Virus record (IMG/VR): IMGVR_UViG_3300025534_000004
Location: 1-64,000 of that record
DNA: 64,000 nucleotides
Source of the DNA: a virus
Reading direction: 5' to 3' (one strand)
Position 1 is the stretch's first letter. Each line of letters opens with the position of its first letter. The notes below the pieces were generated by a model. That model was not told where the DNA came from. It searched no databases and saw only the letters and a list, made by a program, of their open reading frames with translations. Position numbers and translations under genes: made by a program. Below, piece by piece: positions 9,779 to 46,359 of this stretch.

Positions 9779-11659
9779 TTATGCGGTGCGGTTCCGGAGT
9801 CCGGCAAGGGTTCGCAGACGGGAAATGTATCCCTCGTCCGGCAGCACCTCCTCGCCGTCGGTCGGCTCGGTCACCGTCGGCTTGGTCACCTCGCGGGCAA
9901 GGTTGTCACCCTGATTCGGGCGGGGGAGCAGGACATCCTCGCGGGAAAGCTCCATGCCTTCCTCCATGGCGTTGGTCCCGGCCTCGGCGTCATCGAGCGC
10001 CTCCTCGGTGTCATCAAGGTCATCGGCGGTGTCCAGCGGCTCCTGCGGATCGGCGCCAACCGCCGCCTCGGTGGTCAGGCCGCGCAGCCACGAGGAGAAC
10101 TCGCGGATCACATGGTTCTTCTCCGCAATGCCTTCGGAGAGGCTCAGACCGGCGATCCGGATGGCCTGCATAGCAACGGCACGCATCCGGCGGACCATCG
10201 CTGGGTCGCGCTCCTCGGACATGCGGTCGGCGACGAAGGACAGCAGGTTCAGCATCGTATCGTCCTTGACCTGCGGGACGATGGCGCCGAGCTTGTACAG
10301 AAGCTCGCTGGTCTTGTCCGTGAACTGCACGCCCTCCTTCGGATGCGGCGGCTCGTACAGGTCGAGATGGCCGTTCTTGAAGGCTTCCCACGCATCGGCA
10401 TTCACCTTGCGCCCCAACACCGATACGGTCGGCGTGGAGAGGTCCTCACGCGCCTCCTCCACCTCCGCCGGACCCGGCTCAACCTGCTTACGCCCGAACG
10501 GCTTCTGCGGCGCATCCGGACGCGCGAACAGTCGCCCATTGGCGGTCTTGCCGGGCGTGGCTTCGGCCTCGACCTCCTCCGGCGCCTTGTCGGGATGCGC
10601 CGGGCGACGGGGAACGACCTTTAGAAAATCCTCCTCGATGGCGTTGGCCTCGGCTTCCTTCGCCAAGCGACGAACCGCCTTGCACGCGGCCTCGATCACG
10701 GCGTCCGCCAACTCGCGGCCCTCGACGGCGATGATCTCGCGCATCTCGGCCAGATGCTCGGGGGACACGGCATCATCCTGCTCCTGCCCCTCGATCAGGG
10801 TATTGGCGCGCTCGGCAATGGCATCCGCCTCGGCCTGATAGGCGGTCGGGCGGCACAGCCGCTCGAACGTCTTGCGCAGCTTGCGCATCTCGCAGCGGCA
10901 CGCCTCGCGCACCGTCATGGCGCGGTCGCACTCGGTGATGGCGGCGGCGTTCTGGTAGATGTACTGGGAGCAGTTGGCGAGATTGGCGTAGTCGGTCGCC
11001 ATGCGCTGAATCTGCTGCCCGACCACATCGGCGAAGGTGCCGCCCATATTGACGTGCTGCGTCATGGCACGCGCCGGGGCAATGTTGGTCGTCGGGAACA
11101 GGAAACGCTCACCGACCGCGTTCTCGACGAAAATCTGGTCGATATGACGGCCACGGGCACCGATCTTGGTCTCGTCGATCTTGGCGGAGTGCCGCACGAT
11201 CATGCGGGCGTTCTCAAGGCGGAGGTAGCTGGATCGCGAGGTCCCGTAGAGACCGCTTTCGAAGATATTCATGGAAGTGTCCTTCTGAAATGACTCGGCT
11301 ACGGCGGACCCGGAGGCAAAATCCTTCGGAGAAATCTCCTTCCCGTATTGCCTGACGTTGAACAGCAAATTGAATTTGGTTGCGCAGTTGCGCAGCGCCG
11401 TGACCAGCCCGAGGATGTCGGTGATCTTCGTGCTCTTGCCGACCATCAGACGCACGGAGGAATCCTCCCCGGCGTCAATGATGGAGACGAGCAGGTTTTC
11501 CGGCCGCGCGAACATGCGGCGGGCATCGGCCGGGTCATCGACCCGGTTGCTCTCCTCGTCGTAGAGGAGAACCTCATAGTCATATGACCGAAGGATTTGA
11601 AACACTTCGGTCGCGGGTGCGGAGAAATCGACCACGGAATCCTCGGAAGTCGGTTTCAT
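9779..11659 (-). CDS. Large acidic putative virion/prohead-core protein
   Basis: 626-aa ORF with TAAATA box at 11661-11666; true start may be the downstream GTG. Confidence 0.55.
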   Translation of the reverse strand: MKPTSEDSVVDFSAPATEVFQILRSYDYEVLLYDEESNRVDDPADARRMFARPENLLVSIIDAGEDSSVRLMVGKSTKITDILGLVTALRNCATKFNLLFNVRQYGKEISPKDFASGSAVAESFQKDTSMNIFESGLYGTSRSSYLRLENARMIVRHSAKIDETKIGARGRHIDQIFVENAVGERFLFPTTNIAPARAMTQHVNMGGTFADVVGQQIQRMATDYANLANCSQYIYQNAAAITECDRAMTVREACRCEMRKLRKTFERLCRPTAYQAEADAIAERANTLIEGQEQDDAVSPEHLAEMREIIAVEGRELADAVIEAACKAVRRLAKEAEANAIEEDFLKVVPRRPAHPDKAPEEVEAEATPGKTANGRLFARPDAPQKPFGRKQVEPGPAEVEEAREDLSTPTVSVLGRKVNADAWEAFKNGHLDLYEPPHPKEGVQFTDKTSELLYKLGAIVPQVKDDTMLNLLSFVADRMSEERDPAMVRRMRAVAMQAIRIAGLSLSEGIAEKNHVIREFSSWLRGLTTEAAVGADPQEPLDTADDLDDTEEALDDAEAGTNAMEEGMELSREDVLLPRPNQGDNLAREVTKPTVTEPTDGEEVLPDEGYISRLRTLAGLRNRTA

Positions 11660-11744
11660 CTATTTATCGGCTGGTGTCCGGACAGAATCCGGTTGACTTC
11701 CTCAGATTTGTTGGTACGGAATTTCGATGGATGGAGAGGGCACT

Positions 11745-12320
11745 ATGAACCGAGCCGAGCGCCGCCGCGCCGCCAAGGAACAACAGAAGCAGCAGCGAAA
11801 AACGACGCTCTACGCCGAGATGCCCCTCGATGAGGTGCCCCCTCACCTGCACAGATTCATCCCGTGGACGCCCTTCGAGCGGGCGGAGCTTCCGCCGACA
11901 GCCGAGGCCGAGGTGCGGGAAATCGCGGAGAAGTTCGGCCTGTCTGAGGAAGCGGCCCGGCGCCAGATGGAGCGGGTGCTGCGCAATGAGGTCTGGATCA
12001 ATTCCCGCTACCAAGTGAACATCGACCGGAGCCCGGAGATCGGTGAGGGCTGGCCGAAAATGATCCACCTCAGCATCAAGCGCCGAGACAAGGAGGTCAT
12101 CCATGACTGGCGTGACCTGCAACGCATCAAAAATGAACTGATCGGCCCCGAGCACGAAGCGGTGGAACTCTACCCGGCGGAATCGCGCCTCGTTGACGCC
12201 GCCAACCAGTATCATTTGTGGGTGCTGGCCGAGCCGGGGGTGCGCTTCCCTTTCGGCTGGACGGAGCGTGGGAATCGAACCCACGGCACGCGGATTAAAA
12301 GTCCGCCGTTCTTCCTCTGA
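11745..12320 (+). CDS. Conserved phage hypothetical protein
   Basis: HLSIKR.D....HDWRDLQRIKNELIGPE.EAVELYPAESRLVD.ANQYHLW block; 3' end runs antisense into a tRNA. Confidence 0.8.
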   Translation: MNRAERRRAAKEQQKQQRKTTLYAEMPLDEVPPHLHRFIPWTPFERAELPPTAEAEVREIAEKFGLSEEAARRQMERVLRNEVWINSRYQVNIDRSPEIGEGWPKMIHLSIKRRDKEVIHDWRDLQRIKNELIGPEHEAVELYPAESRLVDAANQYHLWVLAEPGVRFPFGWTERGNRTHGTRIKSPPFFL

Positions 12321-12331
12321 ACTACCGGCCC
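12258..12331 (-). pseudogene. tRNA-Lys(UUU) with unpaired acceptor stem
   Basis: D arm, anticodon arm (GCGGA-CTTTTAA-TCCGC) and T arm intact; 5' GGGCCGG cannot pair with 3' GCTCCGT. Confidence 0.75.
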
Positions 12332-12355
12332 ACGCAAAGCCTGTATGGATGGGAT

Positions 12356-12431
12356 TGGAGGGCCGGGTGGGGTTCGAACCCACGACCTTGGGATTAAGAG
12401 TCCCCTGCTCAACCAACTGAGCTTCCGGCCC
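12356..12431 (-). tRNA. tRNA-Lys(CUU)
   Basis: Full cloverleaf, GGGCCGG/CCGGCCC acceptor stem, loop CTCTTAA, encoded CCA. Confidence 0.95.
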
Positions 12432-12441
12432 ATAGACGCGC

Positions 12442-12468
12442 AAAACCCCGCAGCCATCGGCTGCGGGG
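12442..12468 (-). terminator. Attenuator terminator of the tRNA-Lys operon
   Basis: CCCCGCAGCC-GAT-GGCTGCGGGG-TTTT just upstream of tRNA-Lys. Confidence 0.85.
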
Positions 12469-12495
12469 CCGCGAAGGACCGGCAGGGGATGGCTG

Positions 12496-12540
12496 TCAGA
12501 TCAGGCGCGTCAGGCGCTTTCGTTTCGACGTGCTGCTCAT
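12496..12540 (-). CDS. Putative Lys-sensing leader peptide MSSTSKRKRLTRLI
   Basis: 14-aa uORF with AAA and AAG codons between promoter and terminator. Confidence 0.75.
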   Translation of the reverse strand: MSSTSKRKRLTRLI

Positions 12541-12545
12541 GTCCG

Positions 12546-12576
12546 TATTTATAGCCGAACCGGAAATAAAGGTCAA
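12546..12576 (-). promoter_or_regulatory. Sigma70-type promoter overlapping a TAAATA box
   Basis: TTGACC-17 bp-TATAAA(TA). Confidence 0.8.
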
Positions 12577-12594
12577 TAACCGTGTTTTTCTGGT

Positions 12595-13710
12595 TCAGAC
12601 CGGGAAGCGGACCTCGCACAGCGTCCCACCGGATGGGTTGGGCACGATGCGCAGGTTGCCCTCGATCTGGTTGACGAAGCCACGGACAATACGGAGCCCA
12701 AGACCCGTTCCAGTGGGCGGCGCGGTCGTCTTGATGCCAACTCCATCATCAGCGATGCCGAGAACATACTCGTCCCCGTCCCGCCGGAAGGTGATGCGCA
12801 CCGTGCCTGCTCGATCCTCGGGAAAGGCGTATTTGAGGCTGTTCGTAACCATTTCGTTGACAATGAGGCCAATGGGAGCGGCACGCTTGAGCGGGATGAG
12901 ATGGCTCTCGACTTCTGCAATGGCCGTAACCGGGCGCACGCCAATGGTCGCCGTCAGGTCCTCGGCGAGCCCCCGCAGGAATTCTTCGCTGTTGATGACG
13001 CTCCCGAGGGAGGTCCCCTCGACCTTGGTACCATCGAGACGGCCTTGGACGGCCGCCATGGCCGCAACCCGCGCTTCGACGCTCGTCAGGGCATCCCGTA
13101 CTTCGGGATTGCTCGCCATTGCCGCCTGCCATCCGATTGTGGCCGCGAGGCGCTGCAAGTCATTGCGGAACCGGTGCGCCGTATCGCGGAGGAGAAGTAC
13201 CTTTTCAGCTTCCGACTTCTGCGCCCGTGTCATATTCGCGCGCAGTTCGCCCATGATCTTATGCAGGCTTTCAACCAGAAAAACGCCGAAGCAGTTGGTG
13301 GCGATGAATACAGAAACCCCGATCCAATGACTCTTGTCCACGGGATACAAAGAGCCATACGGCGGAACAAGCAGCCAGAAATACAAAAAAGTAGCCAAAA
13401 AAGTCGCCCAATATCCCGTCTGCTGGGCAAGGAAGAATGCCGATATGATTACCGCCGGGGCAAACATCGTCAGCGCATAGCCGTTGAAGTCCCCGACCAT
13501 GAAGTGTCGCACAACTGCTGCTGTGACAACGAGGATGGTCGAAATCCCATAGCGGAGTGCAGTAGGAAGTCGCCGGGTACTCTCCAAAAACTTCGACAAT
13601 CGCAGAATCATCAGCGTCCCTGAGGCGGCCCGTGCCGTGAGCGTCCCTGAGGCGGCCCGTGCCGTGAGCGTCCCTAAGGCGGCCCGTGCTATGCTATCAC
13701 GGAATCGCAA
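12595..13710 (-). CDS. Membrane sensor histidine kinase (HisKA_2/HWE-like, DUF4118-like TM input)
   Basis: H-box AHRFRNDLQ, N-box NEMVTNSLKYAF, G1 DDGVG, G2 GTGLGL; 4 TM helices; start uncertain. Confidence 0.9.
   Translation of the reverse strand: MRFRDSIARAALGTLTARAASGTLTARAASGTLMILRLSKFLESTRRLPTALRYGISTILVVTAAVVRHFMVGDFNGYALTMFAPAVIISAFFLAQQTGYWATFLATFLYFWLLVPPYGSLYPVDKSHWIGVSVFIATNCFGVFLVESLHKIMGELRANMTRAQKSEAEKVLLLRDTAHRFRNDLQRLAATIGWQAAMASNPEVRDALTSVEARVAAMAAVQGRLDGTKVEGTSLGSVINSEEFLRGLAEDLTATIGVRPVTAIAEVESHLIPLKRAAPIGLIVNEMVTNSLKYAFPEDRAGTVRITFRRDGDEYVLGIADDGVGIKTTAPPTGTGLGLRIVRGFVNQIEGNLRIVPNPSGGTLCEVRFPV
13613..13689. repeat. 27-bp tandem repeat, ~2.9 copies
   Basis: AGCGTCCCTGAGGCGGCCCGTGCCGTG x2 plus a partial third copy. 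Confidence 0.9.
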
Positions 13711-13753
13711 GGTATCCCACCCCTTTTGATCACCGTTTCGTTACATAAAGCGG

Positions 13754-13784
13754 TTGACGCCATGCGGAGTTCCTATGCTAAATA
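13754..13784 (+). promoter_or_regulatory. Promoter of the GluRS-tRNA operon
   Basis: TTGACG-19 bp-TAAATA, same spacing as the tRNA-Lys promoter. Confidence 0.7.
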
Positions 13785-13793
13785 GGTACGATC

Positions 13794-13859
13794 ATGTGCC
13801 AGTTTGCTTTCATCATTATCGCCCGACCGGAACCGCAGGAACCCACCCCCTCGCGGTGA
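13794..13859 (+). CDS. Putative Pro/Glu-sensing leader peptide MCQFAFIIIARPEPQEPTPSR
   Basis: 21-aa uORF containing CCG GAA CCG CAG GAA CCC ACC CCC. Confidence 0.75.
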   Translation: MCQFAFIIIARPEPQEPTPSR

Positions 13860-13932
13860 CGCGCTCGTGCGCGGTCGCCGCAAGACGGCGACCGACGGTT
13901 CTCTAGGCCAATCCCGGCCTTCGATATGACCC

Positions 13933-13958
13933 AAGGCCCGCCGTCCAGCGGGCCTTTT
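13933..13958 (+). terminator. Attenuator terminator upstream of the GluRS-like gene
   Basis: AAGGCCCGC-CGTCCA-GCGGGCCTT-TT. Confidence 0.85.
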
Positions 13959-13984
13959 GCATTTCAACCCAGAGAACCAGACCC

Positions 13985-14881
13985 ATGACCACCGCCCACA
14001 CCACCCGCATCGCTCCCTCCCCGACCGGCCTGTTCCATATCGGCAGTGCCCGGACGGCCCTGTTCAACTGGCTGATCGCCCGCGCGACGGGCGGCCGGTT
14101 CCTGCTGCGGATCGACGACACCGACAATGCCCGGAACGACGAGAGGGCCGTACAGGTGATCGACGACGCGCTGGCTTGGCTCGGCCTCGACCACGACATG
14201 CGCGTGCGCCAGTCCGACCGCCTCGACCTCTACCGCAACTTGGCAGCCGATCTTGTCCGCGCCGGTCTTGCACGGATGGACGGCACGGCCGTGCGGTTCG
14301 CGCCGAAGGTCATTGCGGAGGGTTGGTACGACACCATCGCAGGCAGGATCGCGATCACGGACAATGATCGCAAGGCCATTGACGGCCTTGTGCTGCTGCG
14401 GTCGGACGGAATGCCGACCTACCATCTCGCCTCGACCGTGGACGACATGGACCTTGGTGTAACTTGGATTGTCCGGGGCACCGATCACCTGTCGAACACC
14501 GCCAAGCATGTCGTGCTCTGGGAGGCGCTGGCCTCGCTGGACTGGTCCGGCCATGGACGCGGCCTGCCGCTGTTCACCCATGTCGGCCTCATCACGCAGA
14601 ACGGCAAGAAAGTCTCGAAGCGGGATGGCTCCGCGTCGCTGCTCAGCTACCGCGACGACGGCATCTGTGCCGACGCGATGTTCAACTGGCTGCTGCGCCT
14701 CGGCTGGGGTCCGACGGTGGACGACAGGACGACGCGGACCATTACGCGGGACCGGGCGCTCGCCTTGTTCCTCGACGGCGGCAAGATGCGCTCGTCGCCC
14801 GCGAATATGGACATGGCGCTGCTGGCCTCGCTGGATCGCAAATACAAGGGCGCCATCGAGAGGGCCGCACGGGCCGCATAG
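13985..14881 (+). CDS. Glutamyl-tRNA synthetase, catalytic domain only (GluRS/Glu-Q-RS-like)
   Basis: RIAPSPTG..HIGSARTALFNW, LLRIDDTD, PTYHLA..VDD, RG.DH..NT, KKVSKRDG; 298 aa. Confidence 0.92.
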   Translation: MTTAHTTRIAPSPTGLFHIGSARTALFNWLIARATGGRFLLRIDDTDNARNDERAVQVIDDALAWLGLDHDMRVRQSDRLDLYRNLAADLVRAGLARMDGTAVRFAPKVIAEGWYDTIAGRIAITDNDRKAIDGLVLLRSDGMPTYHLASTVDDMDLGVTWIVRGTDHLSNTAKHVVLWEALASLDWSGHGRGLPLFTHVGLITQNGKKVSKRDGSASLLSYRDDGICADAMFNWLLRLGWGPTVDDRTTRTITRDRALALFLDGGKMRSSPANMDMALLASLDRKYKGAIERAARAA

Positions 14882-14890
14882 GTTTCCTGT

Positions 14891-14965
14891 CTGGACGTAG
14901 CGCAGCGGTAGCGTGCTCGCCTCGGATGCGAGAGGTCGCGGGTTCGATCCCCGCCGTCCAGACCA
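14891..14965 (+). tRNA. tRNA-Pro(CGG)
   Basis: Cloverleaf, C1-G72, loop CTCGGAT, CCA. Confidence 0.9.
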
Positions 14966-14968
14966 TTC

Positions 14969-15044
14969 GCCTCATTCGTCTAGTGGTTCAGGACACTGCG
15001 CTTTCAATGCGGAAACACCGGTTCGAATCCGGTATGGGGCACCA
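14969..15044 (+). tRNA. tRNA-Glu(UUC)
   Basis: Cloverleaf, loop CTTTCAA, short variable loop, CCA. Confidence 0.9.
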
Positions 15045-15061
15045 AGTTCATTGCCGCTTAA

Positions 15062-15133
15062 CAGAGCGTGGCCCAGCGGTAGGGCGCCTCCTCGGGAAGG
15101 AGGAAGTCGGTGGTTCGATCCCACCCGCTCTGA
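15062..15133 (+). tRNA. tRNA-Pro(GGG)
   Basis: Cloverleaf, loop TCGGGAA, no encoded CCA, abuts the next tRNA. Confidence 0.85.
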
Positions 15134-15208
15134 CGGGGTGTGGCCGAGTGGCAAGGCGCCTGCTTTGGGAGCAGGAGATCGAAGGTTCGATTCCTTCCAC
15201 CCCGACCA
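15134..15208 (+). tRNA. tRNA-Pro(UGG)
   Basis: Cloverleaf, loop TTTGGGA, CCA. Confidence 0.95.
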
Positions 15209-15299
15209 TATCTCCATTGTGTCGGGAGAACGACCACACTGCGCACGGCTAAATATCGCCATCCATGCTCAACGAACCAGTAATTTGGAGCGTCGCGCC

Positions 15300-18200
15300 G
15301 TGATCCTCGTCAAATCCATTGCATTCCGTGGTGCCATCAACGTCAAGTACAGGATTGCGGACACCTCCCCGCCTGTTTGGGTGACGCCCGAGGGCCTGCT
15401 CGGCACGGCGCACAGCGGTGATACCGTCGGCTTCCAACTCGTCGCCGACAGCGCGAACCTCATCACCGACTACCGGGTGATCTCCGGCGAGCTTCCGGCC
15501 TACCTCACCCTTACATCGACCGGACTGCTCACCGGGACCGTGCCGGAGGAGATTGAGAGCGAGACCACCTTCGAGATCACGGTGCGCGTCACCGACAACT
15601 ATGGGCAGTATGCCGACCGCAGCTTCTCGGTCGTGGTGGCTCCGCCGTTGCCGCTGGCACCCATCTGGCAAACGCCGTCTAACCTCGGCAGCGTGCCCGC
15701 GCTCACGCCGATCAACATTGGCCTGCTGGCCGAAGCCGATCCGAGCGCCACAATCGTGTCCTATACCATCGCACCCTATTCCGGCGCTCTCCCGGTCGGA
15801 CTGACGCTCGACCCGGTCACGGGCGCCCTGTCCGGCACTCCGAATTATGTCGGCACCAATACCACCTACTTCTTCGTGCTGCGGGTCACCGATTCGAATG
15901 GCCGCTTCACGGACCGCTCCTTCCGCCTCGCGGTGACCTATGTCAACACACCGCCGAAGTTCATCACGCCAACCGGGCTGATCACCGATCTCGAAGGCGG
16001 GGAAAGCGCCAACGTCCTCCTGAACGCCACGGACGACAAGGGCATCAAGCACTGGCGCGTCCTCACCGGAGCACTGCCGGACGGACTGACCCTGTCGAAT
16101 GCTGGGTTCATCATGGGTACCGTCGCTTCGGTAACGGAAACCACCGTTTACGACTTCACCGTGGAGATCGAGGACGCCGAAGGTCTGACCGCGCAGCGGG
16201 ACTTCTCGATCAAGGTATGGGCGCCGAACCAGCCTCCGGTGTTTCTGACGCCGGAGGGCAGCCTCGGGACCTTCGATGAAGAATCGAAGATCAATATCAG
16301 CCTGTCCGTGGCGGATGATCGCAACCAAATCGCCAAAGTCGAGGTGGTCGGTGGGGATTTCCCTGCCGAATTGAACATGAGACCGGAAGGCACCATCGTT
16401 GGCACGCTCCCAGCGGTCGAGGAGGACACCACATACACCTTCACGCTTCGCGTTACCGACCTCGGCAACCGCGAGAACAAGAACAAGCTCTACAGTGACC
16501 GGACCTTCTCCCTGACGGTCCGCAATGTCGAGAACATGGCTCCGGTCATCACGACTCCGGCCGGAAGCCTAGGAACATTTGCGGAAAACTCCACCATCCT
16601 TGTGCATCTGGAAGCGACGGATGACCGCGATGGCACCTATGTCACATGGAGCATCGCGCCGGGATCGAGCCTGCCGGACGGGCTCACGCTCACCAGCGAC
16701 GGCACCCTGAAAGGTACCGCGCCGGAGGTCATGGAGGACACGACCTACGAGTTCACCCTGCGGGTGTCCGACCATGGTGATGGCATCAACGATCCTCTGT
16801 TCACGGATCGCACCTTCTCCATCACGGTGACGGACGTGAACACTCCACCGGTTCTGGAAGGCCCGAGCAACCTTGGGAAATACTGGACCGGGGACGTTGT
16901 CGAGGTGCAGCTTTCGGCGCAGGATGACAAGGCCATCACCGAATGGGAGGTCATCGGCGGGGAACTCCCGCCGGGCTTCGTCCTGACCACCAGCGGCGTG
17001 ATCAGCGGCACGGTGCCGCCACTGGACGAGATCACCGACTACAGCTTCGAAATCCGCGTGAGCGACGCCGAGGGGCTGACGGCATCGGCCACCTATACGA
17101 TGCGCCTGATGTCGGAGGAAGCCACACTCACCAACGCAGCGCCCGTCATCACCACTCCCGCCGGTTCGCTGGGAATCTTCGACGAGCGTACCGCCATCTC
17201 GTACACTTTGGCTGCCACTGACGATTATGATGAGCCGGTCTGGGAGGTCACGGGCGGTGACCTGCCGGAGGGCCTCAATCTGTCCCCCGAGGGCGTGATT
17301 TCCGGCACGACGCCGGACGTGATGGAGGACACGACCTATGAGTTCACCGTCCGGGCAAGCGATTCGCGCGGCCTCTACACGGAGCGCAGCTTCTCGATGA
17401 TCGTAGCGGATGTGAATACGCCGCCGGAAATCACCACCACCGAACTGCCGCCGGTCGTCGAAGGCAATTCCGTGTCGTTCCAGCTTGAAGGCACCGACGA
17501 CAAGGCCATCACGGAGTGGAGCATCGTCTCCGGCGCCCTGCCGAGTGGCTTGTCCATCTCCGCCTCCGGCCTGATCTCGGGTACGGCGCCAGAGGTCGAT
17601 GAGGATACGAGCTACGCCTTCACGGTGCAAGCCAGCGATGCGGGCGGCCTGACCGCAACCATGGAACTGAGCCTGACCGTGCGGAGCCGCGAGCCGTACT
17701 TCGTCACGCCGTCGGGTCTGCTCGGGACCTTTGAGAAGCGCGAGGAAATCGCCGTCGCCGTCGAGGCAAGGGATGATGTCGGGATCACGCTTTGGGAAGC
17801 CGTCGATCTGCCCGACTTCCTCACCCTACAGCCGAACGGTGTCCTTACCGGCATCGCTCCGGATGTTCTCACGGATACGGTCTACCCGATTACCCTGTAC
17901 ATTGAGGACGCGGACGGCCACTCGGCGACGCGTGAGTTCAGCATCGCAATCAAGTATGTGAACACGCCGCCCGTTATCACCTCGTCTGCCGACCTCGGTG
18001 CCTATGTGCAGAACGCTCCGGTCAGCATTCAACTGGAAGGCACGGACGATATCGGCATCGACGAATGGGCCTTGGAGGACAGTGACCTGCCGGAGGGCCT
18101 CAGCCTGACCCCGACCGGGCTCATCAGCGGCACCACGCCCAGCGTAACCGAGGATACGCGTTTCTATTTCACGGTACGCGCGACCGACACCGGAGGGCTC

Positions 18201-26027: not shown

Positions 26028-28249
<2,222 letters not shown>

Positions 28250-46172: not shown

Positions 46173-46246
46173 TGGAGATGTGGGCTGGAATCGAACCAGC
46201 GTGGACGCTTTTGCAGAGCGTCACCTAACCACTCGGCCACCACATC
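46173..46246 (-). tRNA. tRNA-Cys(GCA)
   Basis: Cloverleaf, loop CTGCAAA, U73, CCA. Confidence 0.95.
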
Positions 46247-46330
46247 GCCGGGCGAGAGGACGGTCGTTCGAGGGGGACGTAGGGAGGCCCGCCCTCTCGC
46301 GAGGTCGCCGATCTCTCGGCGACGGAATGA

Positions 46331-46359
46331 ACTCTACACCACTTAAACATGGAAGTCAA
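46331..46359 (-). promoter_or_regulatory. Sigma70-type promoter for tRNA-Cys
   Basis: TTGACT-17 bp-TAGAGT. Confidence 0.75.

Follow-up and report, generated by a model that had tools for sequence, protein, structure and literature searches.

A candidate leader-peptide attenuator ahead of two tRNA-Lys genes in a jumbo phage

Why phages carry transfer RNA (tRNA) genes is a question 50 years old. Phage tRNAs have been proposed to compensate for codon usage, to stand in for host tRNAs that are degraded and to evade defences that cleave tRNA (PMC10264068, PMC11464382, PMC11555353), and current answers say little on how the expression of the genes is controlled. That question is raised by a locus on the minus strand of IMG/VR virus record IMGVR_UViG_3300025534_000004, in which a promoter, a short upstream open reading frame (uORF) and an intrinsic terminator stand ahead of the genes for tRNA-Lys(CUU) and tRNA-Lys(UUU). 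The window, i.e., the whole stretch of DNA that was analysed, is the first 64 kb of this 147.7-kb viral record. On balance the locus is judged somewhat more probably than otherwise to be a ribosome-mediated (leader-peptide) transcription attenuator that gates the two tRNA-Lys genes. This reading is favoured because the anatomy is coherent, the rival fold of the leader is statistically unusual, and a codon-matched layout occurs in other phages, including relatives.

The source is, to judge from its large terminase (TerL), a high-G+C jumbo phage of the Atu_ph07-like lineage (G+C about 62%), since the TerL relatives are Agrobacterium phage Atu_ph07 and Sinorhizobium phage Phosso (56% identical) and several uncultured phages of 290–608 kb (62–69% identical). 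The same phage was assembled elsewhere as a 484.6-kb contig (ENA ERZ795072 NODE_2), and its origin is described as that of a soil or bioreactor giant phage. The host is probably alphaproteobacterial, because the closest isolates infect Agrobacterium and Sinorhizobium and because the nearest relatives of a histidine kinase encoded next to the leader (36–41% identity) are found in Falsiroseomonas and related Acetobacteraceae and in Sphingomonas.

The proposed mechanism would run as follows. The promoter, compatible with host sigma-70 as well as with T4-type late geometry, would start the RNA at, or no more than 2 nucleotides (nt) from, the AUG of the uORF. The 109-nt leader would fold first into an antiterminator (12495-12488 with 12458-12451, around an inner hairpin), which would compete with the terminator. 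A ribosome reaching the stop codon would cover the 5' strand of the antiterminator, so that the terminator would form and the tRNAs would not be made; with the ribosome absent, or held earlier in the uORF, the antiterminator would be kept and the tRNA genes transcribed. The likeliest hold-up point would be the rare-codon stretch AAA-CGA-AAG. The outcome would be a negative feedback of tRNA-Lys supply on tRNA-Lys synthesis.

Anatomy and folding of the leader

The coordinates of all features are given in Table 1. The -35 and -10 hexamers of the promoter are separated by a 17-nt spacer, and the ATG of the uORF begins at 12540, 7 nt past the TATAAA hexamer, as the sequence-only reading of this locus, made without database searches, had described. 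Promoters of the form TTGAC-N16-18-TAnAnW occur eight times in the 147 kb (about 1.5 expected from base-composition arithmetic), and another of the eight precedes a tRNA-Cys gene. The hexamer TAAATA was counted 41 times in the 147-kb record (other A/T hexamers, 2 to 16 times each), e.g., at window positions 27844, 33740, 53229 and 59348, and most of the 41 sites lie 20–38 nt ahead of long open reading frames (ORFs). It often occurs as (T/C)TAAATA, which is T4-late-promoter-like. At three of the 41 sites the box is followed by ATG at a spacing of 5 nt, against about 0.46 expected by our own arithmetic: at 12551 (the uORF), at 27844 (a terminase of 601 amino acids (aa)) and at 103856 (a 474-aa ORF). 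Because the terminase gene and the 474-aa ORF have the same spacing as the uORF, this phage seems to make use of leaderless starts, and the sites suggest that late messenger RNAs (mRNAs) are included. The T4 late box occupies -13 to -6 (PMC1524935), and this geometry, applied here, predicts the A of the uORF start codon as position +1. In alphaproteobacteria mRNAs without a leader are a common type and are translated with good efficiency (PMC4117421). A search of the 147-kb record with Sigma70_r2 gave no match, which says little on a gp55-like late factor, such factors being very divergent.

The uORF, a predicted leader peptide that would be translated from the transcript 5' end, holds one AAA and one AAG and no other Lys codon, as noted before; these are the codons read by the two downstream tRNAs. 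In the codon usage of the phage Lys makes up 3.3%, AAA 0.49% and CGA 0.38%. The terminator that follows ends 10 nt short of the tRNA. Hairpins of such strength followed by T4 or more were found at only nine sites in the 147 kb, this one included (both strands, strict G+C search), and in seven of the nine the first T-run is exactly four, so that U4 is the norm in this phage; termination would be expected at the U4 here. Of the two tRNA genes behind it, that for tRNA-Lys(UUU) has a weak acceptor stem, with one C-C mismatch and two G-U pairs, and a T stem of 4 bp, and its product may be weakened or specialised. Terminator and both tRNA genes are thus where the sequence-only reading had placed them, by direct reading, ARAGORN and Rfam.

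Also borne out is the complementarity on which that reading had built its attenuation model: CAGCCATC (12495-12488) is complementary at every position to GATGGCTG (12458-12451), which lies in the loop and 3' arm of the terminator. In the minimum free energy (MFE) structure of the full 109-nt leader this 8-bp pairing, the inner hairpin and a 7-bp basal stem (12511-12505 with 12441-12435) form one long hairpin in which the terminator is displaced and which stops 3 nt before the tRNA. The basal stem was absent from the sequence-only reading; it can be formed only after readthrough and would lock the leader in the antiterminator fold. In dinucleotide-preserving shuffles of the 72 nt upstream, the full-leader MFE was without the terminator in only 1.2% of trials, and a perfect complement of at least 8 nt between the upstream 72 nt and the terminator arose in 4%. 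In folds of growing transcripts the inner hairpin is present by 80 nt and is extended by 90 nt, at which length the antiterminator is in place and the 3' arm of the terminator does not yet exist.

The effect of a ribosome was modelled by imposing a 30-nt footprint on equilibrium folds. With the A site in any of the last five codons or on the stop, where the ribosome covers CAGCCATC, the probability of the terminator is about 1; with the ribosome on AAG or on the next codon, the probability of the antiterminator is 0.83–0.90. In these folds the geometry fits a course in which translation to the stop leads to termination. The balance of the equilibrium folds is too fine to single out a working stall site.

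Table 1. Features of the lysine leader and of the other units discussed (window positions, unless a locus designation is given).
Feature	Position	Strand	Basis
-35 box TTGACC, sigma-70-type	12571..12576	-	sequence read
-10 box TATAAA (12553-12548), extended to TATAAATA, the T4 late-promoter consensus	12546..12553	-	sequence read
uORF, 14 codons and stop (stop codon 12498-12496), ATG at predicted transcription start (leaderless)	12496..12540	-	sequence read and ORF list
AAA CGA AAG (Lys-Arg-Lys; AAA 12525-12523, AAG 12519-12517), candidate stalling stretch	12517..12525	-	sequence read and codon usage
GACGCGC, 5' half of basal stem of long antiterminator hairpin, within uORF codons 10-12	12505..12511	-	MFE
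Antiterminator 5' strand CAGCCATC, directly 3' of stop codon	12488..12495	-	full-leader MFE pairing
Antiterminator inner hairpin, sequestering part of terminator 5' arm	12461..12485	-	folds of growing transcripts
Intrinsic terminator: 10-bp G+C stem (12468-12459 with 12455-12446), 3-nt loop, U4 (TTTT at 12445-12442)	12442..12468	-	sequence read
GCGCGTC, 3' half of basal stem, between U-tract and tRNA	12435..12441	-	MFE
tRNA-Lys(CUU), CCA encoded	12356..12431	-	ARAGORN; Rfam tRNA model, 64 bits
tRNA-Lys(UUU)	12258..12332	-	ARAGORN; Rfam, 46.8 bits, local match to model positions 8-63 only
Membrane histidine kinase, HWE-type (DUF4118, HisKA_2, HATPase_c)	12595-13710	-	Pfam domains
Sister unit: TTGACG-19-TAAATA, 21-codon uORF (13794-13859), terminator 13935-13958	13754-15208	+	sequence
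tRNA-Cys unit: TTGACT-17-TAGAGT promoter, 85-nt leader, GTCGCC/GGCGAC hairpin	46246-46359	-	sequence
Thr-rich uORF, 30 codons, 13 Thr, behind TTGACA-17-TATAAATA-N5-ATG, before tRNA-Thr UGU, CGU, GGU	L275:7768-7860		
Asn-rich uORF, 15 codons, 5 Asn, then terminator and two tRNA-Asn	L258:7379-7426 (G002)		
35-codon uORF, two terminators, then tRNA Phe, Leu, Trp, Arg, Arg, Lys(CUU), Lys(UUU)	L111:717-824 (G002)		

Orthologues and codon-matched analogues

Searches for orthologous leaders were negative. Nothing beyond tRNA bodies was found by blastn of the leader against the INPHARED phages or with the leader DNA in nine TerL-related jumbo-phage records, and no orthologous leader was found with the exact terminator pattern in IMG/VR, with a 42-mer of tRNA-Lys(CUU) in JGI metagenome contigs, or by protein-anchored searches with the flanking kinase, GluRS-like, DUF7694 and 618-aa proteins. 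The DNA contigs of four sequencing runs hold near-identical copies only. Lys(CUU) and Lys(UUU) stand side by side within the large mixed tRNA arrays of known and uncultured relatives; in Atu_ph07 and Phosso the Lys tRNAs lie in dense arrays, and no similar leader was found there. A permissive Rfam cmscan (E up to 1) of 11500-15800 returned tRNA matches only and no family in the leader; a weak YrlA match (28.7 bits, cut-off 69) overlying the tRNAs was dismissed.

Homology searches having failed, analogues were sought in IMG/VR by promoter geometry. One pattern was TTGAC-N17-19-TATAAATA-N5-ATG; the other was TATAAATA-N5-ATG followed, 145–175 nt on, by the tRNA T-loop motif. A hit was kept when a uORF of 5–40 codons ended before a same-strand tRNA starting within 250 nt, and duplicates were removed. 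The scans left 13 independent pairs of uORF and tRNA array. At the amino-acid level 72 of the 211 sense codons are cognate to the downstream array, as compared with 30.9 ± 7.5 on random re-pairing, and a count of 72 was reached in none of 100,000 re-pairings; at the codon level, with wobble rules, 63 are cognate (21.8 ± 6.9 on re-pairing). When the pairs are set against the long ORFs of their own loci, so that the codon usage of each phage is allowed for, Fisher's combined P over the 13 pairs is 8e-17 for amino acids and 6e-18 for codons. The sequence-only reading had proposed a scan of related phages for uORF codons that match downstream anticodons, and such matches are present in these pairs, close relatives included.

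The common layout is a TATAAATA-type box, an ATG about 5 nt on, a uORF of 5–40 codons and a leader of 100–180 nt; many of the analogous leaders, among whose loci are L111, L182, L242, L258, L273 and L275, have a strong terminator with T6–T7 a few nt before the first tRNA. The lysine locus has this geometry, with the box at 12553-12546, the ATG at 12540, the 14-codon uORF and the 109-nt leader. Within the class it has the weakest codon signal (2 of 13) and the clearest predicted antiterminator, and it serves one amino acid with two isoacceptors.

Three analogues come from relatives. The Thr-rich uORF lies in a phage (L275/L269) that shares a syntenic block with the window (RecA 74%, a gp32-like protein 61% and a 626-aa protein 38% identical). 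The Asn-rich uORF and the 35-codon uORF are from G002, a 608-kb phage whose TerL is 68% identical to that of this phage, and in the latter uORF 9 of 11 consecutive codons are Leu, Phe, Lys, Arg or Trp. Judged by the last of these, the Lys pair of at least one relative (L111) would be under the control of a codon-matched leader, and here the pair has a small unit of its own. Whether large phages, including the Atu_ph07-like lineage, regulate their own tRNA genes by codon-matched leader-peptide attenuators, the output of each block tracking slow decoding, is for us an evenly balanced matter.

Some other features of these phages were recorded. A 168-kb uncultured phage has three tRNA blocks (L182:2513, 5479 and 6556, plus strand), each after TTGACA-17-TATAAATA and a short uORF; two of the three uORFs open with the same three codons, and the promoter-uORF modules look duplicated. 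In another uncultured phage ARAGORN reports a tRNA with a four-base anticodon (cuua; L242:3255-3330) in an Arg/Ile/Arg/His/Phe/Lys array. G002 (L106:1404-1569) and G003 (L109:1409-1565) each have a tandem pair of tRNAs with the anticodon CUA, labelled Pyl by ARAGORN; these amber-reading pairs hint at suppressor tRNAs or stop-codon reassignment.

Weighing the explanations

A number of observations weigh against the attenuator reading. As regards the codons, only 2 of the 13 sense codons are Lys, with Ser (3) and Arg (3) commoner; at the Lys usage of the phage at least two Lys in 13 codons have P=0.067, and one AAA together with one AAG about 0.02, so the Lys codon signal of this locus alone is weak. 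The uORF has no Shine-Dalgarno sequence, and its translation depends on the predicted start site. The U-tract of the terminator has only four U, with few U beyond. In the equilibrium folds a ribosome on AAA gives the terminator, and at 99 nt without a ribosome the terminator has 0.68 and the antiterminator 0.32, a gap of about 1 kcal/mol. The terminator persists in every masked MFE of several analogues and of the Pro/Glu leader of a sister unit in this phage, and for this reason a switch is not predicted thermodynamically in all members of the class. The tRNA-Cys leader of this phage has a similar promoter but no start codon, hence no uORF. Since no orthologous leader was found, there is no covariation evidence, and conservation in relatives, which the sequence-only reading had named as a check, is inapplicable as worded. 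A near-identical strain from another bioreactor sample differs in the leader at two positions, neither of them informative: one changes Thr4 of the peptide to Met, and the other, a G-to-A just 5' of the terminator stem, would add an A-U pair to the terminator and break one pair of the antiterminator.

The sequence-only reading of a Lys-sensing attenuator thus held in part. Its anatomy, the rare rival fold and the codon-matched analogues speak for attenuation; Lys as the sensor is put in doubt by the commoner Ser and Arg codons and by the folds with a ribosome on AAA. Likewise, of its expectation that a ribosome at the stop would terminate transcription and one on the Lys codons would permit it, the stop and AAG masks agree and the AAA mask does not, with energy gaps that are small. 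That Lys is the sensed codon, making this a Lys-specific attenuator, is accordingly held only tentatively, at rather less than even confidence. The switch could instead be coupled to translation in general, any slowed or lost translation opening the gate and the Lys codons being incidental. Such a sensor would agree with a peptide in which Lys is not the commonest residue and whose stand-alone P is only 0.02–0.07, and with masked folds that depend on the ribosome reaching the last five codons or so, stalling on AAA giving no antitermination. It is nevertheless considered improbable: the codons of the analogous uORFs track specific downstream tRNAs, the uORFs ahead of homogeneous units in relatives are rich in Thr or in Asn, and the sole Lys codons here, one AAA and one AAG, fit the two anticodons. 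That the trigger would be starvation or PrrC/PARIS-type nucleases is speculation.

The leader might also be constitutive. The hairpin and U4 would then be a leaky terminator or insulator of the kinase gene, or a stabilising or processing hairpin by the RNase P site, with the uORF untranslated and the rival fold without regulatory role; in its leaky-terminator form the leader would set a fixed tRNA level. The kinase gene, encoded on this strand too and ending at 12595, does lack any other terminator, and the short U-tract, the single long hairpin of the full-length MFE ending 3 nt before the tRNA, and the tRNA-Cys leader with its promoter and hairpin and no ORF would all suit this explanation. 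Hard to explain in this way, however, are a promoter that would lie 75 nt ahead of the terminator and so separate it from the gene that it serves, a terminator-destroying fold of a kind found in so few shuffles, an ATG at the predicted +1 with a stop codon that abuts the antiterminator, and the codon-matched uORFs in the same layout in relatives; a constitutive leader is regarded as unlikely. In phage lambda, PR'-tR' consists of a promoter, a terminator within about 100 nt, and then genes. The lysine locus has this layout, and its promoter combines early-type and late-type boxes, so that timing could matter; readthrough might thus depend on a modified RNA polymerase (lambda Q/N-like or put-like), or the terminated transcript of about 100 nt might itself be a small RNA product. 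No antiterminator gene or recognition site was identified, no systematic search having been made, and such a model leaves unexplained both the codon matching of the analogous leaders and the stop codon abutting the antiterminator strand. We regard it as quite improbable, and the leader-peptide attenuator remains the preferred reading.

Other tRNA units, known systems and meaning

The kinase gene next to the leader has no phage homologue among the proteins searched. Beyond it, on the opposite strand, the sister unit encodes a 298-aa GluRS-like protein (Pfam tRNA-synt_1c) and the tRNAs Pro(CGG), Glu(UUC), Pro(GGG) and Pro(UGG). Its uORF has four Pro and two Glu within eight consecutive codons (an enrichment of 6/20, P about 0.02 by our own arithmetic), and several hairpins precede the terminator, which is another of the nine strong terminator-like sites. 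Hairpins of the GTCGCC...GGCGAC type near promoters, as in the tRNA-Cys unit, were considered as an element, and were set aside as too few (5 against about 1 expected, by our own arithmetic). In a 17-kb walk to the left of the window in the 484-kb assembly, no additional tRNAs were found in the part scanned (318,355-325,949), and the gene calls in the next locus (from 308,697) leave no large gap.

Two further tRNA loci have neighbours of their own. A release-factor-like gene (PCRF and RF-1 domains, 186 aa; G000 73738-74298, minus strand; L120:1739-2299) ends 12 nt from a tRNA-Thr(CGU)/Thr(UGU) pair, with a TAAATA box between. A 521-aa TnpB/Cas12f-like ORF (Cas12f1-like TNB domain; G000 86289-87854, minus strand; L121:2290-3855) lies about 540 nt upstream of a tRNA-Met, the 5' end of which is 4–5 nt after a TAAATA box.

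The anatomy resembles that of the enterobacterial leaders trpL, hisL, pheL, thrL and ilvL in its promoter-adjacent short ORF and its mutually exclusive antiterminator and terminator hairpins, and in the proposed logic, by which the terminator is favoured once a ribosome has reached the stop, and readthrough when it stalls on regulatory codons. The trpL leader has 14 codons, of which only 2 are regulatory. Here, in contrast to the enterobacterial systems, the transcript is predicted to be leaderless, with no Shine-Dalgarno sequence, and the regulatory codons are not adjacent. The proposed signal is the supply of usable tRNA-Lys, not amino-acid synthesis, and the regulated output is two tRNA-Lys genes, not genes for amino-acid biosynthesis, transport or aminoacyl-tRNA synthetases; the locus would for this reason be a variant and not an ordinary leader-peptide attenuator. 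In place of the enterobacterial 1:2 / 2:3 / 3:4 scheme there are two structures only, because of which the proposed ribosome-free default leans to readthrough.

Closer in other respects are the leaderless leader peptides of Actinobacteria, including those before alaS, thrS and trpS, some of which have very few regulatory codons (PMC8079986), the leaderless polycysteine uORF attenuators of mycobacteria (bioRxiv 10.1101/834739) and the trpS leader peptide of Caulobacter (PMC4117421). These share with the lysine locus a uORF at the transcript 5' end and the control of translation-apparatus genes; in some the regulatory codons are very few, and in some a U-rich terminator is missing. The genes under their control are cellular and protein-coding, whereas here the genes are phage tRNA genes. 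In T-box riboswitches, too, the state of one particular tRNA is sensed, and a choice between terminator and antiterminator decides on transcription. No ribosome takes part there, however: the riboswitch itself binds the uncharged tRNA, and its RNA, which has a specifier loop and a T-box bulge, measures some 200 nt or more; the T-box family (RF00230) is unmatched here, no Rfam family being found in the leader at E up to 1 and the leader having only 109 nt.

No account of tRNA genes controlled by leader-peptide attenuation, whether in phages or in cells, turned up in full-text searches of the literature, in line with the sequence-only reading, which knew of no described attenuator with the cognate phage tRNA as its output. 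The proposed mechanism is classical; its output and the sensed quantity, both the phage's own tRNAs, would be new relative to the literature. If the reading is true, leader-peptide attenuation would extend from amino-acid supply to tRNA supply, and this locus would be the single-amino-acid (Lys) version of the codon-matched attenuators. The codon content of a uORF would be a signature that predicts which tRNAs a block backs up. The tRNA supply of these phages would be self-regulating, with each tRNA block a demand-driven module, and would combine tRNA homeostasis with a built-in sensor for the loss of host tRNAs, e.g., to anticodon nucleases.

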